Origin: a phage
Length of the DNA: 64,000 nt
Strand: one strand, 5' to 3'
Sequence record: PZ445436.1
Below, one piece after another: positions 14,981-52,760 of this stretch (within the stretch, counting starts at the first letter, position 1; every line of letters begins with the position of its first letter). The notes under the pieces were generated by a model. The model saw nothing but the letters and a program-made list of their open reading frames with translations. It was not told where the DNA came from and made no database searches. A program made the translations under genes and the position numbers.

Positions 14981-15415
14981 GCTTACACGAACATTAATCA
15001 CTGCGCTGCGAGGAACTACAGAGTACTCTCCAGCATGAACTACGTTCAGAAGTTCAACACCATCTTCAATCCACTGATCAGTCACCCATCCACCCACAGG
15101 ATTCGCGAATGGACGACGAATATAAACTGCCTTACACAGTAGATCAGTTGGATCTTCAGGTTTTTCAATTTCTGTCAATAGACTAAAATCTTTTTCATAA
15201 ATAATAAGCGGTGATACCATTCCATAATAGTTTCTAATTTCAATATACATCATACCGATAAGAATTCCGCTATTAACACTAATAACAGTAAAAGGATATC
15301 CGCCAGTTAAAGCAAGAAGTTCACAAAACTTATTATGAGCTGTATTAGACAGTACCGGAAAATTCTTAATTTCATCAAATTTTTTCAATTGATAAACAGC
15401 ATTATTTTTAATCAT
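14978..15415 (-). CDS. Hypothetical protein (145 aa), paralog of 14413..14904
   Basis: ORF track; shared C-terminal motif VTDQWIEDGVELLNVV. Confidence 0.5.
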   Translation of the reverse strand: MIKNNAVYQLKKFDEIKNFPVLSNTAHNKFCELLALTGGYPFTVISVNSGILIGMMYIEIRNYYGMVSPLIIYEKDFSLLTEIEKPEDPTDLLCKAVYIRRPFANPVGGWVTDQWIEDGVELLNVVHAGEYSVVPRSAVINVRVS

Positions 15416-17418: not shown

Positions 17419-18738
17419 TCACACATAAAATACATCATAACGACCACGAGTTACACCAACATAAAGAAGTTGTTGGGCCAATTCAGCATCTGCATAATGA
17501 ATACAAGGCGTATAAATGAAAGCACGGTCTACAGACATACCCTGAGCTTTATGGAATGTTGATGCAGGAAGTGCTTTCACTTTACTAAACTGTGATTTAG
17601 CATCCCAAAAATCACTCCATGGAGCTTTTCCGCCTTTGTTCCAATTTTTATAAGTTTCTGCCGTTTTACCTAAAAATAGGTTAAACTTATACAATTCTTC
17701 ATCAGATGAAATTATTTTAATCTTTTCACGATAATATTCATCATCGCCGTAAGTTTCTACTGTTAAATCCCAATGACGAATTAAGTATTCTCCAGGAACA
17801 CCACGGGCTTTAACAAACGTTGATGTATACTCTGCTTCTATAATACGAACTAATTGTCCGTTATTAAAAATAATTTCTGACACAGGCTTTCCATCAATTT
17901 TATATGTTTTAATTAATGGTTCCTGCATTACAATAATTTCACCTACAATAAAATCTTTATCAGTTTCAAAAATCTTTTTACGAATAATGCTATTTAACTT
18001 GTCAACAGATTTATTCGTAAATGCCATTACGCGATTTTCAAACAAATCATCTAGAGATTTGACGATTGAAAAATAATTTACCATAAAATCGCGTAAAGCG
18101 GTATCACCTGTAAATCCACGTACTCCATGCCCGTCAACAACTTTATCATAAATCCACTTACCGTTGCGAACATCAGTAGCTACATCAATAATAGGAGCAT
18201 TACTGCGTTTAACTTCAGTAAGTTCACACTGATAAAAATCTTTGTGTGTAAAGAATGGACTGATATAAGCAGTATTTTCTCCTGGATCAACAGGTCTAAT
18301 TTGCTTATTATCCCCTATTCCAATTATAGTACACCAAGGTGGAATAGTTGAAAGCAGAATTTTAAATAGCTTTCTATCATACATTGACACTTCGTCGCAG
18401 ATTAATACCCTGCATTTAGCTAAATCTGGTACTTCCTTCTGTTCAAAAAGAACGTTTTCTTCATACGTAACTGGGTTAATTTTAAGAATACTGTGAATAG
18501 TACTCGCTTCTTTCCCCGACAGTTTTGAAAGAATCTTTTTAGCTGCATGTGTAGGAGCTGCCAAAATGATACCAGTTTCGCCTGTTGATATTAAAGCTTC
18601 AATGATGAACTTAGTAAGAGTAGTCTTACCGGTACCAGCAGGTCCATTAATAGTTACATGATGTTTCTTTTCTTTAATAGCCTTCATAACAATGTTAAAG
18701 GCATTTTTCTGGCCTTCGGTCAAATCATCAAATGTCAT
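17419..18738 (-). CDS. dda: DNA helicase Dda (SF1B)
   Basis: 439 aa; Walker A GPAGTGKT; sequence matches recalled T4 Dda. Confidence 0.88.
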   Translation of the reverse strand: MTFDDLTEGQKNAFNIVMKAIKEKKHHVTINGPAGTGKTTLTKFIIEALISTGETGIILAAPTHAAKKILSKLSGKEASTIHSILKINPVTYEENVLFEQKEVPDLAKCRVLICDEVSMYDRKLFKILLSTIPPWCTIIGIGDNKQIRPVDPGENTAYISPFFTHKDFYQCELTEVKRSNAPIIDVATDVRNGKWIYDKVVDGHGVRGFTGDTALRDFMVNYFSIVKSLDDLFENRVMAFTNKSVDKLNSIIRKKIFETDKDFIVGEIIVMQEPLIKTYKIDGKPVSEIIFNNGQLVRIIEAEYTSTFVKARGVPGEYLIRHWDLTVETYGDDEYYREKIKIISSDEELYKFNLFLGKTAETYKNWNKGGKAPWSDFWDAKSQFSKVKALPASTFHKAQGMSVDRAFIYTPCIHYADAELAQQLLYVGVTRGRYDVFYV

Positions 18739-23612: not shown

Positions 23613-23822
23613 TTAAATTACATGATTATTTATAATAAATTCTCGCGGAACGTTAAAATACCCGATTTTAGTTAATATAACAACATCACCGTTAATAATT
23701 ACCGGAGAATAATCTTCTGGAGCATTAAATTTCCAATGGGCTCTAATATTATATCCATCAGAACCAAATGCTCGAGTAGCCGGTCTCCCGGCTTTTTGCC
23801 ACGCGTAGAAATCAAATTTCAT
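23613..23822 (-). CDS. Hypothetical protein (69 aa)
   Basis: ORF track. Confidence 0.45.
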   Translation of the reverse strand: MKFDFYAWQKAGRPATRAFGSDGYNIRAHWKFNAPEDYSPVIINGDVVILTKIGYFNVPREFIINNHVI

Positions 23823-24013
23823 TTTGAATGATCTATAATTAATTTTAAATCTTCTTCACTGACAAAAATTTCGTCAGGACCTTCTATAACTTCAACCATA
23901 CGAAGTTGATTAGTTAAGAGCTCACATACGAGCTCCTTGTTATAATCTTTAAATAGCTGGTCAATACGTTTCTTATGGGCTTTCTTAAGCTGACGCTTAT
24001 TTAAACGAGCCAT
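23819..24013 (-). CDS. Hypothetical protein (64 aa)
   Basis: ORF track. Confidence 0.45.
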   Translation of the reverse strand: MARLNKRQLKKAHKKRIDQLFKDYNKELVCELLTNQLRMVEVIEGPDEIFVSEEDLKLIIDHSK

Positions 24014-24531
24014 TAATAACCTCGGTCTTGACGAGCGAAGTTTTCAGCATTTTTCAGGTAATAAAGTTTAAAGATTTCTTCAGCTGACATTCCAAGAGCA
24101 ATAAATTTATTCATGAAAAAGTGAAATTGATCAATCAGTTCAAATTTAATTTCAAGTTGATCTTCAGGAGATAAGTCTTGAATTTTCTTGGATTGCATTT
24201 CAGAATAACGTTTCTTCCAAGGTTTCCATACAGCAGAAGCTTCTTTTTCACCATTACTCATACCACCAAGAGAAGTATATAGCTCGCGAGTTTCGTCTGC
24301 AATATAATCGTCTTGGTTTCGCAACCAAGCAAGAACTTCTCCTGCAGTTTCAAGTGAATCAGGATGACGATTTGTTTCTGGTTTATCATTAGCCAAACGA
24401 ATCTGTAAATGCCGCTGCATATCAAGCATAACCTGCAGTGGGTCAATATTGTGCATAATATTCTCAGCATATGCACGATTTGCTTTATCAACACCTTCGA
24501 TCAAATGAGCACATTCATTAAAGTGAGCCAT
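24013..24531 (-). CDS. Hypothetical protein (172 aa; start refined to MAHFNECAHL...); possible all-alpha NTP pyrophosphohydrolase (MazG-like) fold
   Basis: ATG 24529-24531 with SD AAAGGA; acidic E..GE...DE stretch; fold assignment is a guess. Confidence 0.5.
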   Translation of the reverse strand: MAHFNECAHLIEGVDKANRAYAENIMHNIDPLQVMLDMQRHLQIRLANDKPETNRHPDSLETAGEVLAWLRNQDDYIADETRELYTSLGGMSNGEKEASAVWKPWKKRYSEMQSKKIQDLSPEDQLEIKFELIDQFHFFMNKFIALGMSAEEIFKLYYLKNAENFARQDRGY

Positions 24532-24602
24532 TATTTTTCCTTTCAATTCATGGGTTAGTAGATTAATTATACAATAAATATATAAAGCAATAAGGAGGAC
24601 AT

Positions 24603-24803
24603 ATGGTACAAAAATTAATGGCACTTGTTAATGCCATCAAAGGTAATAAAAAGCGTATAGCTTTTACTATTTCTGCTATGGTAGGAATTTTACTCTGGAA
24701 CTTTATTTTATCACCTGTTGCAATTGCACATGGTATTAATATTCCAGTAGTTACTCTTGATACATTCGTAGATTTAGCATTTGCTTTAGTTGGGTTAATT
24801 TAA
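24603..24803 (+). CDS. Small hydrophobic protein (66 aa) on the plus strand, convergent with gene 61
   Basis: Strong SD AAGGAGG 4 nt before ATG; stop shares the TTAA tetranucleotide with the gene 61 stop; predicted TM helix. Confidence 0.45.
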   Translation: MVQKLMALVNAIKGNKKRIAFTISAMVGILLWNFILSPVAIAHGINIPVVTLDTFVDLAFALVGLI

Positions 24804-25828
24804 ATCTTGGCATATTTAGATAGCCGCATTTTAGCCATCAACCCCTGCGCAATATTATTTTTCATATATTCCATAATTTGTTCAGGGGTTGCACCTTCCT
24901 TTCTAATCATATCATTAACATCTTTTGATTTCCAGGGAGATTTATCCCAAAACATAACCCTTTCTCCTGCATCAACTAATTTAGTCATTCGCTTAATAGT
25001 GTCAGGATGACGAGGTTCATTATCTAAAACCCACACTCGTCTATCTTTAAATGGAACAACTTCTAGGTCTAATTGACCACCTGTAATAGCTATACCATTT
25101 TCAATAAAAAGTGAATCTATAGGTCCTTCTAGAACATATACATCACCATCTTTAACTCGTTCAACACCGTAAATTTTTGTTGCCTCAGGATAAGCTTTAA
25201 TGGTGATATATTTTTGAGGAGCATCTTTCTTTAATGCACGTCCTTGAAAAGACTCAGCTTTTCCATTAGCATTATAAATTGGAATAACAAGACGAGGCTC
25301 AGAAATTTCCTTTTTGTATGTTCCCGGTGCTATGCTATTAACTAATTTAGGCCATTCGGTTGTAAACCAAAGATATTTCCATTTATCCTTTGGAATACAA
25401 CGAGCTTTTACATATTTTATAATTGGATGGTCTTCCGCCAGTTTATCTAATCTAACACATGACGGAAGAGATTTAATTATTTTCTTCTCAGGTTGCTTAG
25501 GAAGTTCTTTAGGTTTTTCTACTGGACGACTTTTACCTTTTTCTTTTCTTATTTCAAAGATATACTCACGATATAAATCAGGTTCAAACTCCTTTAAATA
25601 TATTCCTATCGGTGCATGATAGTTACAGTTATAACAATGAATATTTCCTTCATTATTATCACCATAATACCATCCACGAGCTTTATTCTGGTCGGTTTTT
25701 GAATCTCCACAAACAGGGCATCTAAACCGCAATTTAAAAGTTGAACTATTATTTACTTGTGTGAATTTAGGTAAATGAGCTAATGCACGGTATGCAAACT
25801 CATTATCAATCCAAGGTATTGATGACAT
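24800..25828 (-). CDS. 61: DNA primase (gp61)
   Basis: 342 aa as in T4 gp61; N-terminal zinc ribbon (CPVCGDS...CYNC) and TOPRIM region. Confidence 0.88.
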   Translation of the reverse strand: MSSIPWIDNEFAYRALAHLPKFTQVNNSSTFKLRFRCPVCGDSKTDQNKARGWYYGDNNEGNIHCYNCNYHAPIGIYLKEFEPDLYREYIFEIRKEKGKSRPVEKPKELPKQPEKKIIKSLPSCVRLDKLAEDHPIIKYVKARCIPKDKWKYLWFTTEWPKLVNSIAPGTYKKEISEPRLVIPIYNANGKAESFQGRALKKDAPQKYITIKAYPEATKIYGVERVKDGDVYVLEGPIDSLFIENGIAITGGQLDLEVVPFKDRRVWVLDNEPRHPDTIKRMTKLVDAGERVMFWDKSPWKSKDVNDMIRKEGATPEQIMEYMKNNIAQGLMAKMRLSKYAKI

Positions 25829-25830
25829 TT

Positions 25831-25995
25831 TTACTCTTCTTTTTCTTTAGATTCCTCTTTTTTCTTTTTAGGAATCTGTTCAGGACCTTTATTTACTACA
25901 GCACCTGATGTTGTTCCAGTAGAGATATTTTCAGGATTACCACCTGAATCTCCAGCAACCATATCTTCTTTGATAAATTCTTTATATGTTTTCAT
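25831..25995 (-). CDS. Small hydrophilic protein (54 aa), tightly coupled upstream of gene 61; absent from the ORF track
   Basis: Hand translation MKTYKEFIKEDMVAGDSGGNPENISTGTTSGAVVNKGPEQIPKKKKEESKEKEE; stop lies 2 nt before the gp61 ATG. Confidence 0.4.
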   Translation of the reverse strand: MKTYKEFIKEDMVAGDSGGNPENISTGTTSGAVVNKGPEQIPKKKKEESKEKEE

Positions 25996-25996
25996 A

Positions 25997-26623
25997 TTAA
26001 CCTCTATTCATAAAAGCATTAAAAATTTGGTCATCAATAGAAACATTTACTTTAGACTGTTTTTCTGATGGTAATTCATATCCACATATTACAATTTTGT
26101 GATCAATATCAAAATACACAGAAGCAATATGATTAATGATGTTTTCAGTAAAGTCTAAATCAACATCAATATCTTTTTGACCACAGCCCAAAGGATAAAT
26201 AATGCGAGTAATTCGATTATCTTTAACAAATATTCCACCGACATACTCTGTGCTGCGTTTAAAGTCTACACGCCGACGAAATGAAAAATATTCAGGCTCT
26301 CTATGAGCTCGGCTCATAGGACACAACGAGTAACTAGAATAAGAGATGTCAAATCCTACGCCTTCAATATGAGCCAAAGTGTCATGATTAAACCAATTAT
26401 AATCGTACGCCAAATCCATTAGATTATAATATGTAAAAGGCACCGGATTAACATCATTAGTCACAAGCATGTAATTAGCAACTGCTATAATTTCATTGTT
26501 TTTAACGAATACAAACCGTGATTGATGCGAATGACCTGGACCCGCGTTTTCACGATTAATGATATAACACTGGGCACCTTTATATTTGTATGTATCTTTG
26601 CATTTGTGCATTTGATAGAGCAT
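25997..26623 (-). CDS. Hypothetical protein (208 aa) in the 41-61 intergenic insert
   Basis: ORF track. Confidence 0.5.
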   Translation of the reverse strand: MLYQMHKCKDTYKYKGAQCYIINRENAGPGHSHQSRFVFVKNNEIIAVANYMLVTNDVNPVPFTYYNLMDLAYDYNWFNHDTLAHIEGVGFDISYSSYSLCPMSRAHREPEYFSFRRRVDFKRSTEYVGGIFVKDNRITRIIYPLGCGQKDIDVDLDFTENIINHIASVYFDIDHKIVICGYELPSEKQSKVNVSIDDQIFNAFMNRG

Positions 26624-50434: not shown

Positions 50435-52248
50435 TGGTGTTTAACCCTATGCATGATTTCTTTATTTTTACCGAGATTAAATCCGCGTTCGTTCGGATTT
50501 CCCAAATAACCACATGTTCTTCTTATTGTGTTCATCTTTTTAGGATCAGTTTCTCCACAAATAGAACAAACAAATCCGTTTTCAGTAGGAGTCATTTCAT
50601 GGGTACTTCCGCATGTAAAACATTTATCTACCGGCATGTTAACACCAAAATAATCTAAATGTTGTGCAGCATAATCCCATACAGCCTCAAGACCTTTTAG
50701 GTTATTTTTCATATCAGGAAGTTCAACATAAGAAATGTGACCACCTGTCGCAATGAAATGATATGGCGCTTCACGAGAAATCTTTTCAAACGGAGTAATA
50801 TTTTCTTCTACTGAAACATGGAAACTGTTAGTGTACCAGCCTTTATCGGTAACATCTTTTACACTTCCATATTTTTCTGTATCAAGTTTACAGAAGCGAT
50901 AACAAAGGTTTTCAGCAGGAGTCGAATATAAACTAAAAGCAAATCCGGTTCTTTCAGTCCACTGTTTAAGATGGGCATTCATTTTAGTTAAAATTTCTTG
51001 TCCAATATCACGACCGACAAGAATATTCAATTCGTGAATACCAATGTATCCTAAAGACACTGAACTTCTACCGTTTTTAAATAACTCAATTATGTCGTCA
51101 TCAGGTTTAAGACGAACCCCAAATGCACCTTCTTGGTAAAGAATAGGAGCAACAGTCGCTTTAACTCCTTTTAAGGAACTAATTCTACACATCAAAGCTT
51201 CAAAACACAAATCCATTCGTTCATTGAACAATTCGATAAATTTCTGTTCATTGAACTGTGTTCCAATATAAGAATCTAATGCGATACGAGGAAGATTCAG
51301 TGTTACAACACCAAGATTATTACGTCCATCAAGAATTTCATTACCAGTCGAATCTTTCCATACGCTCAAGAAACTACGGCAACCCATCGGAGAAACAGGA
51401 ACAGATGAACCAGTGATAGCTTTATTGTTCTTAGCTGAAATAATATCAGGATACATCCTTTTGCTTGCGCACTCTAGAGCAAGCTGTTTAATATCATAGT
51501 TCGGATCGTCTTTATAAAGATTAACACCTTCTTCAACAAACATAACAAGCTTAGGGAAAATAGGAGTTATCCCATCACGACCAAGACCTTTAATACGATT
51601 TTTCAGAATTGCTTTCTGAATCATTCGTTCAGTCCAGTCAGTTCCCGTACCAAATGTAATTGTTACAAAAGGCGTTTGTCCGTTTGAACTAAAGAGAGTA
51701 TTTACTTCATATTCATAAGCTTGGAATGCATCGTATACATCTTTTTCTGTTTTAGATTGAGCATAATTCAGTGCATCGGCGATTTGCCATTTTTCTGCAT
51801 CCTCAATATGTTTTGCATAGGTGCGTTTAACATAAGGAGAAAGTACTTTATCTACATTAGCAAAAGTCGTTCCGCCGTATTGATGGGAAGCAACCTGTGC
51901 AGTAATTTGTGCCATAATTGCAGTAGCAACTCCAATTGATTTAGGAGTTTCAATCTGCGCATTACCAAGCTTAAATCCGTTCTCAAGCATTCCTTTTAAA
52001 TCTACTAAACAACAATTAGTAAATGGAAGAGCAGGGGAATAATCAATATCGTGGAAATGGATAATTCCGCTTTCATGCGCTTTCATAATAAAAGACGGGA
52101 CCATATTTTTGGCAATGTGTTTAGACACAATACCAGCCATAAGGTCCCGTTGAGTTGGAAAAACACGAGAATCTTTATTAGCATTCTCGTTTAAAAGGTC
52201 TTTATTAGTTTTATGAATCAATCCTTCAATTTCTTTTTCAATTGTCAT
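50431..52248 (-). CDS. nrdD: Anaerobic ribonucleotide reductase NrdD, uninterrupted
   Basis: 605 aa continuous ORF; C-terminal glycyl-radical motif (RRTCGYLG) and Zn-ribbon cysteines. Confidence 0.88.
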   Translation of the reverse strand: MTIEKEIEGLIHKTNKDLLNENANKDSRVFPTQRDLMAGIVSKHIAKNMVPSFIMKAHESGIIHFHDIDYSPALPFTNCCLVDLKGMLENGFKLGNAQIETPKSIGVATAIMAQITAQVASHQYGGTTFANVDKVLSPYVKRTYAKHIEDAEKWQIADALNYAQSKTEKDVYDAFQAYEYEVNTLFSSNGQTPFVTITFGTGTDWTERMIQKAILKNRIKGLGRDGITPIFPKLVMFVEEGVNLYKDDPNYDIKQLALECASKRMYPDIISAKNNKAITGSSVPVSPMGCRSFLSVWKDSTGNEILDGRNNLGVVTLNLPRIALDSYIGTQFNEQKFIELFNERMDLCFEALMCRISSLKGVKATVAPILYQEGAFGVRLKPDDDIIELFKNGRSSVSLGYIGIHELNILVGRDIGQEILTKMNAHLKQWTERTGFAFSLYSTPAENLCYRFCKLDTEKYGSVKDVTDKGWYTNSFHVSVEENITPFEKISREAPYHFIATGGHISYVELPDMKNNLKGLEAVWDYAAQHLDYFGVNMPVDKCFTCGSTHEMTPTENGFVCSICGETDPKKMNTIRRTCGYLGNPNERGFNLGKNKEIMHRVKHQ

Positions 52249-52718
52249 TTTAAACTCTTTCTAAGCTGCTTCTTGAATGAAGCTATTAATTGTGTTTTGG
52301 TGTCAGATTCATTATATTCAAATCCTCTTTGAAGCATCTCAGCCATCATTTCCTCTTTTCCTAAACGAGAAAATTCCTTTGATTTATCTCCAACAAAGTT
52401 AGGGTGAATATTATTTTGGGTGTAATCGGATTTTAAATAAGTAAGTAAATTTTCTAACCATTCAAGATAATCAACACCTTGCCCCTTTAAGCCAGAACGA
52501 TTAAATTTATGTTTCATTTGACCTTCTGCGGCATTGCAGAGATTACAAAGCAATCCACGTACCTTTCCTGCTTTTGGTCCATTTAATTCATGGTCATGGT
52601 CGAGGTGATTAGCTTGAACGTCAGGATTTAGTTCTCGTTGGCAAATTAAGCATTTACCATTTTGTGCATCATAAAATTTCTGTTTTTCTTCTTTATATAA
52701 TTTGCCAGTCAATAACAT
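52245..52718 (-). CDS. 49: Endonuclease VII (gp49, Holliday junction resolvase)
   Basis: 157 aa as in T4 endo VII; Cys-rich zinc site and H-N-H-like residues. Confidence 0.82.
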   Translation of the reverse strand: MLLTGKLYKEEKQKFYDAQNGKCLICQRELNPDVQANHLDHDHELNGPKAGKVRGLLCNLCNAAEGQMKHKFNRSGLKGQGVDYLEWLENLLTYLKSDYTQNNIHPNFVGDKSKEFSRLGKEEMMAEMLQRGFEYNESDTKTQLIASFKKQLRKSLK

Positions 52719-52760
52719 AATAAAACCCTTACCTTAAATAGATAAGGGTATTTATTATTT

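Follow-up and report, generated by a model that had tools for sequence, protein, structure and literature searches.

A conserved plus-strand gene for a predicted small membrane protein, probably expressed late, within the early-gene block of a T4-type phage

Results

A 66-codon gene on the strand opposite the early genes

Judged by sequence conservation, the open reading frame (ORF) at 24603-24803 on the plus strand is a genuine conserved protein-coding gene of 66 codons, orthologous to dam.1 of phage T4T and to RB69ORF029w. The best explanation of the locus as a whole, to which we assign a probability of about 0.6, is a real gene that is expressed late and whose product is a small membrane protein with an accessory role in the cell envelope. 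The gene lies in an early-gene block of a T4-type phage (Tequatrovirus), which makes up the window (the whole 64-kb stretch of DNA that was analysed), and the surrounding region (24000-25900) is 98-99% identical to many T4-like phages of E. coli and Shigella. The gene, its translation signal and its neighbours are as follows.

24603..24803, plus strand: coding sequence of 66 amino acids plus stop, dam.1 / RB69ORF029w / phrog_2024 family (ORF and profile match)
24592..24598, plus strand: Shine-Dalgarno (SD) sequence AAGGAGG, 4 nt (ACAT) upstream of the ATG (sequence)
24800..24803, both strands: TTAA common to the two convergent stop codons, TAA of the ORF and TAA of gene 61 (sequence)
24800..25828, minus strand: gene 61, DNA primase (342 aa), convergent neighbour (phrog_47, E = 1e-106; annotation of relatives)
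24013..24528, minus strand: gene 56, dCTPase (171 aa), divergent neighbour (phrog_173, E = 5.6e-44; annotation of relatives)

The sequence-only reading of this DNA had described a 66-aa plus-strand ORF convergent with primase, preceded by a strong SD sequence at 4-nt spacing and ending in a stop codon that shares TTAA with the stop of gene 61. All three features were recovered: the frame runs from an ATG at 24603 to a TAA at 24801-24803, AAGGAGG lies at 24592-24598, and the stop of gene 61 corresponds to the reverse complement of 24800-24802, whereby 24800-24803 is common to both stops. The combination of AAGGAGG, a spacer of 3-8 nt and an ATG occurs only this once in the 64 kb, with both strands searched. 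The ORF matches the PHROG 2024 profile with an E-value of 1.4e-31, its residues 2-66 aligning with positions 1-65 of the 65-position profile.

That every other gene here is on the minus strand, as the same reading held, agrees with the layout of the window, in which we found no other credible plus-strand gene. Minus-strand ORFs occupy 95% of the 64 kb, and of the plus-strand ORFs with 30 aa or more, the present one alone is situated for the most part outside this coverage (overlap of 13%). The other plus-strand ORFs of this length in the 64 kb number four; each overlaps minus-strand ORFs by at least 40%, and none has an SD sequence. Similarly, in the annotated close relative SHBML-50-1 the ORF is the single plus-strand coding sequence among 66. 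The mechanical ORF list starts gene 56 at a GTG at 24624 (24013-24624, minus strand), which would overlap the start of the ORF; this start was rejected, and the real one is the ATG at 24528, giving 171 aa as in T4 gp56. Compared with T4, the present phage lacks dam, which in T4 lies between genes 56 and 61, as well as segF; the interval between soc and gene 56 (23613-24013, minus strand) contains two small ORFs of 69 and 64 aa where T4 carries the homing endonuclease gene segF.

Distribution, paralogues and annotation record

The sequence-only reading had named beforehand a lack of conservation in close relatives as grounds for giving up the ORF; it is kept in 692 phage records and in all lineages compared. 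These records were identified by tblastn, and 686 of the 692 contain at least 80% of the ORF, with an identity above 90% in Tequatrovirus and of 44-57% in Mosigvirus and Gaprivervirus. An open frame of 61-66 codons is present in Tequatro-, Mosig-, Gapriver-, Dhaka-, Kanagawa- and Moonvirus and in Klebsiella phage Marfa, and the family spans at least seven Tevenvirinae genera plus Marfa; scans of IMG/VR returned only seven loci. In every lineage compared, it is a lone plus-strand gene with a GGAGG-type SD sequence, and GGAGG upstream of the ATG is kept in all of them. Wherever the ORF abuts primase (RB69, T4, copy b of UPEC01, JS10, Marfa, CIP9, PEi20 and Moon), the two stops overlap by 4 nt, as TTAA or CTAA. 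DK-13 is the exception, with a homing endonuclease gene between the ORF and primase.

Two subtypes can be distinguished, which are about 20% identical to each other. The Gaprivervirus UPEC01 carries both as diverged tandem paralogues, a followed by b, 8 nt apart (2495-2901 of the locus), Dhakavirus and Klebsiella T4-like phages have type b only, and Kanagawavirus and Moonvirus contain more distant members. Copy b is decayed in two Gapriverviruses, being frameshifted in TH40 and reduced to ATG-TGA in DK-13; hence at least one of the paralogues can be dispensed with. When every ORF in the window was searched with the family profile, no paralogue emerged, the single weak match being an alternative frame of another gene.

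The gene is already known, listed in hundreds of genomes as a hypothetical protein and ordinary in kind. The names on record are RB69ORF029w, RB32ORF030w (in RB51 and RB14), dam.1 (T4T, HM137666) and phrog_2024; all denote the same gene, with identical position, strand and primase stop overlap, and none is accompanied by a function. The sequence identity of these entries is 97-100% within Tequatrovirus and 49-57% in Mosigvirus and Gaprivervirus. In the canonical T4 genome (AF158101.6 / NC_000866.4), the ORF is present at 17738-17938 between dam and 61 and is unannotated, as it is in KJ477684-6, MT984581, JS10 (EU863409, 15341-15541) and PEi20 (NC_028683, 16719-16904). Literature searches for RB69ORF029w, RB32ORF030w and dam.1 found no mention among the papers covered, and a search on T4 ribosome profiling or unannotated T4 ORFs found nothing relevant. 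The T4 omics studies that we examined rely on the reference annotation, from which the ORF is missing.

Signatures of protein-coding sequence

The substitution pattern within the family is of the coding type and points to a protein under purifying selection. Variable sites at codon positions 1/2/3 number 42/19/56 in type a, 6/2/11 in Tequatrovirus and 20/8/52 in type b, so that the third position ranks above the first and the first above the second in each set. Pairwise dN/dS values are 0.1-0.2 within genera and 0.13-0.45 between genera, where synonymous sites are saturated. In addition, the length of the frame is unusual for the interval in which it lies, as only 103 of 20,000 shuffles (0.5%) of the 275-nt gap contained an ATG-initiated ORF of at least 66 codons.

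A conserved late-promoter-like box upstream of the gene

Upstream of the SD sequence lies a candidate promoter on the same strand.

24573..24580, plus strand: late-promoter-like box AATAAATA, with A at -13 (T4 consensus TATAAATA; predicted from sequence and comparison)

The sequence-only reading had noticed that the upstream DNA resembles the T4 late-promoter core with one mismatch. In T4 late promoters, transcription starts about one helical turn downstream of an 8-bp box. The match, AATAAATA at 24573-24580, is conserved in position across lineages; it ends 22 nt before the ATG and departs from TATAAATA at -13, and it is followed directly by the A/T-rich TATAAAGCAATAA, as in T4 late promoters. 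In a published listing of T4 late promoters, the box is perfect in 32 of 50, and A at -13 in place of T is the commonest variant, found in 9 of 50 (PMC2988020). Aligned on the -13 position normally held by T, the box predicts a transcript start at about 24586, near the 24585 proposed earlier, and thereby a leader of 17 nt.

In eight of nine lineages compared, NATAAATA precedes the ATG by 14-22 nt, and Moon has a degenerate form. The complete box reads AATAAATA in the present phage, RB69 and JS10, GATAAATA in T4, and CATAAATA in Gaprivervirus and PEi20, and Marfa and CIP9 have a perfect TATAAATA. Its first base is not T in Tequatro-, Mosig-, Gapriver- and Dhakavirus, with the G of T4 and the C of Gaprivervirus being rarer variants. 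The motif is also scarce in its surroundings. ATAAATA occurs 6 times in the window, compared with 41 +/- 5.6 expected (about 7-fold depletion), and TATAAATA occurs once, compared with 11 expected, this single copy (23627-23634, minus strand) being the box before the late gene soc. Apart from the sites at which it is put to use, ATAAATA is avoided.

The direction of transcription leads to the same assignment. Early and middle transcripts of T4 share one polarity, and late transcripts may have either (PMC2988020); because all early and middle transcripts run the opposite way, a plus-strand gene at this place can only be late. The possibility of late expression raised by the sequence-only reading is thus supported by the conserved box and by transcript polarity together. 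We regard the predicted late promoter as well supported. Expression would, with considerable probability, be exclusively late, driven by gp55-RNA polymerase from the variant promoter AATAAATA with a start near 24586 and a 17-nt leader, and the transcript would be translated efficiently from the strongest SD sequence of the window.

Late genes embedded in early regions are familiar from T4, namely soc and gene 49, which resemble the present gene in their short leader, SD sequence and late box 20-32 nt upstream of the ATG. Both, however, share the strand of the early genes, whereas the present gene occupies the other strand and converges on primase. A further copy of AATAAATA in the window (52749-52756, minus strand) lies about 30 nt before a 157-aa gene-49-like ORF (52245-52718) and is followed by a hairpin-forming leader. 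Two plus-strand boxes, CATAAATA at 15196-15203 and GATAAATA at 26194-26201, are situated within early genes and are not followed by an ORF; they may be antisense late promoters.

Candidate minus-strand signals in the same interval

The short interval that holds the late box and the first codons of the gene also carries candidate signals for the two flanking minus-strand genes.

24566..24590, minus strand: MotA-type middle promoter of gene 56, back-to-back with the late box (predicted from sequence)
24605..24640, minus strand: terminator-like hairpin (24640..24615) followed by TTTTTG (sequence; folding energy of -13 kcal/mol)

T4 middle promoters combine a MotA box of the consensus (a/t)(a/t)(a/t)TGCTT(t/c)A with a sigma-70 -10 element 11-13 bp downstream. 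Read on the minus strand, the interval contains TTATTGCTTTA, 11 nt and TATAAT, in agreement with this arrangement and thus with a predicted promoter; the MotA box itself, TTGCTTTA, is the reverse complement of 24583-24590, and the -10 element that of 24566-24571. In phage fPS-90, a "predicted middle promoter" is annotated at the equivalent place. The predicted gene 56 promoter overlaps the predicted late start site. We infer that a gene 56 transcript from such a MotA promoter primes oriA, because the T4 record carries a note on oriA and a review describes MotA-dependent priming. The idea that the conserved ATAAATA is a mere spacer of the minus-strand middle promoter was considered and rejected. 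The MotA box switches sides between genera while the distance from ATAAATA to the ATG stays constant, which assigns the ATAAATA core to the plus-strand gene.

The hairpin has a stem of 11 pairs, three of them G-C. It falls within codons 3-13 of the ORF, about 160 nt beyond the stop codon of gene 61, and these codons would therefore be doubly constrained. A terminator is annotated at the equivalent place in phage fPS-90, and the hairpin probably ends gene 61 transcripts; its function is uncertain, since the one terminator-like hairpin found in 1.9 kb is close to the 0.8 expected by chance. Among the lineages compared, it is present in Tequatrovirus only, and for this reason the hairpin was rejected as the cause of ORF conservation.

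These signals give grounds for suspecting that the ORF is untranslated and merely a by-product of minus-strand regulatory DNA, that is, of the gene 61 3' untranslated region with its terminator and of the gene 56 promoter. The omission of the ORF from the reference T4, JS10 and PEi20 annotations fits this view as well. Against it stand the coding-type substitutions with dN/dS below 1, a frame, length, SD sequence and ATG that are kept at 18-30% amino-acid identity, the restriction of the hairpin to Tequatrovirus and the rarity of so long an ORF among shuffled sequences. We consider it the least credible of all the alternatives, with hardly any probability left to it.

Downstream of the ORF, a search of 24790-25900 found no plus-strand intrinsic terminator. 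As a side effect of its expression, the late ORF transcript should therefore continue, in antisense, into the 3' end of primase gene 61. It is conceivable that this convergent transcription is the main function of the locus, with the antisense RNA lowering late primase and the peptide being secondary. The missing terminator would suit such a role, as would the stop-to-stop overlap of 4 nt kept in every lineage in which the ORF abuts primase, and some sites in T4 are known to be transcribed on one strand at one time and on the other at another (PMC2988020). An antisense role, however, does not require the purifying selection on the protein or its invariant residues, and in DK-13 the ORF has been retained although the homing endonuclease gene parts it from primase. 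Moreover, gene order is generally conserved in these phages, which makes synteny alone weak evidence. Regulation of primase as the main function is accordingly improbable, and a translated gene with a selected protein product is the reading that we prefer.

A predicted single-pass membrane protein

The product of the gene is predicted to contain one membrane-spanning segment and a short tail.

24657..24728, plus strand: predicted transmembrane helix, codons 19-42, with invariant W32-N33 and P38, plus A40 (hydropathy and AlphaFold2)
24729..24800, plus strand: predicted periplasmic tail, codons 43-66, with the motif G44-x3-P48-x-V50-x2-D/E53 and a short C-terminal helix

A transmembrane helix had been predicted from the sequence at the outset, and two approaches agree with it: residues 19-42 are hydrophobic, with a mean of about 2.0 on the Kyte-Doolittle scale (19-residue window), and AlphaFold2 places a helix at 16-42. 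The AlphaFold2 model (46-sequence alignment; pLDDT of 77.5) further contains helices at 2-12 and 52-63 and a loop at 43-51, and the pLDDT of helix 16-42 is about 80. Because the basic cluster KGNKKR immediately precedes the long helix, the N-terminus is expected inside and the 24-residue tail outside, a topology that draws on the positive-inside rule only for its orientation and on a moderate-confidence AlphaFold2 model. The product is thus probably a small inner-membrane protein, in which residues 1-18 would form a basic amphipathic cytoplasmic segment, residues ~19-42 the membrane helix and the last 24 residues a tail outside.

Across nine lineages that are only 18-30% identical, W32, N33, P38, G44, P48 and V50 are invariant, and residue 53 is acidic in all. 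N33, S37, A40 and G44 share one helix face, beside the invariant W32, which would be the pattern expected of an intramembrane helix-helix interface. This suggests that the protein may act through helix-helix association in the membrane, either with itself or with a partner, together with a short periplasmic contact.

The same segment can be read as a precursor, in which residues 1-42 are a long signal peptide that is cut by signal peptidase I after A-I-A (P38-V-A-I-A42 | H43-G44), releasing a 24-residue periplasmic peptide. The basic n-region, the hydrophobic core, the proline at -5 and the small residues at -3 and -1 are all as such a precursor would have them, and the features of the cleavage site are kept in most lineages (AIA, ALA, AAS, LVA). 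Its core, in contrast, measures 21-24 residues, the length of a membrane anchor rather than the usual 7-15 of signal peptides, and it includes the invariant W32-N33, whereas signal-peptide cores are normally not conserved in sequence. In addition, the type b core contains an Asp, position -3 is Leu in Mosigvirus, and position -1 is Thr in some of the type b proteins. Given a core that is both anchor-length and conserved, cleavage is a minority reading, and we consider it unlikely. Still more speculative, and very unlikely in our estimate, is the extension of this idea to the whole family, according to which P-x-A-x-A|(H/S/T/Y)-G would be a real signal-peptidase site and, late in infection, a conserved peptide (~22-24 residues; G-x3-P-x-V-x2-D/E...) would be exported by T4-type phages. 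If true, such a peptide could serve as a diffusible or periplasmic signal in lysis inhibition or phage-to-phage interference, and the classic T4 system of lysis timing would gain a component of a new kind.

An uncleaved, single-pass membrane protein thus remains the preferred reading, and searches indicate that it resembles no characterised family. Scans of Pfam, NCBIfam and PADLOC at E-values of up to 10 gave no match, and phmmer against 1.8 billion representative proteins returned the same phage lineages only, plus three spurious multi-repeat proteins. A sequence profile search of the PDB yielded nothing below E 0.4, and Foldseek found no match in the PDB and only the family's own members in BFVD.

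T4 relies on the holin T for lysis, which t mutants fail to achieve. T has the topology of a class III holin, and the present protein resembles it, as far as predictions go, in its cytoplasmic N-terminus, single helix, outside C-terminus and late expression. Being small and probably late, with one membrane helix, the product might itself be taken for a holin, and the UniProt entry for a family member from phage OE5505 (P0025 / A0A482MZV5) is indeed named "Holin". This name is given without a stated experimental basis, however, and no holin model of Pfam or NCBIfam matches at E-values of up to 10, the only fold matches being to the family itself. The protein also lacks a charged hydrophilic C-terminus, its C-terminus being FVDLAFALVGLI, which ends in ALVGLI, and its gene is located between those for dCTPase and primase, away from the lysis genes; in T4, moreover, lysis requires T. 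Holin T has 218 aa and a large periplasmic domain, compared with a tail of 24 residues here, and the two share no similarity in sequence or fold. A holin function is therefore highly improbable.

Discussion

For a single-pass protein of this size, small regulators offer an analogy. AcrZ, MgrB and MgtS of E. coli are single-pass regulatory membrane proteins with a few conserved interface residues, and by this comparison the present protein would presumably bind a larger membrane protein. The likeness lies in similar size and in one helix with a few such residues; it is an analogy only, without homology, and the present protein is phage-encoded. Within T4, the proteins Imm, Sp and RI are likewise small and act at the inner membrane or in the periplasm, but imm and sp, unlike the present gene, are early genes on the other strand. 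As a guess, which we hold only tentatively, the likeliest role is in accessory envelope control late in infection, for example in lysis timing, lysis inhibition or superinfection resistance.

Beyond the protein itself, the locus clearly illustrates two arrangements: predicted middle and late promoters placed back-to-back, and a gene overlapping the 3' untranslated region and putative terminator of its convergent neighbour. Should the role of the product turn out to be minor and accessory, the finding would be of practical use only for the correction of annotation. T4 is a reference organism of molecular biology, and a conserved gene is absent from its canonical annotation; the ORF is thus invisible to any T4 transcriptome, proteome or knock-down study that is built on the reference gene list. 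Compact and readily amenable to experiment, the gene is a candidate for a late membrane function that is still missing, for instance in lysis timing, lysis inhibition or exclusion.
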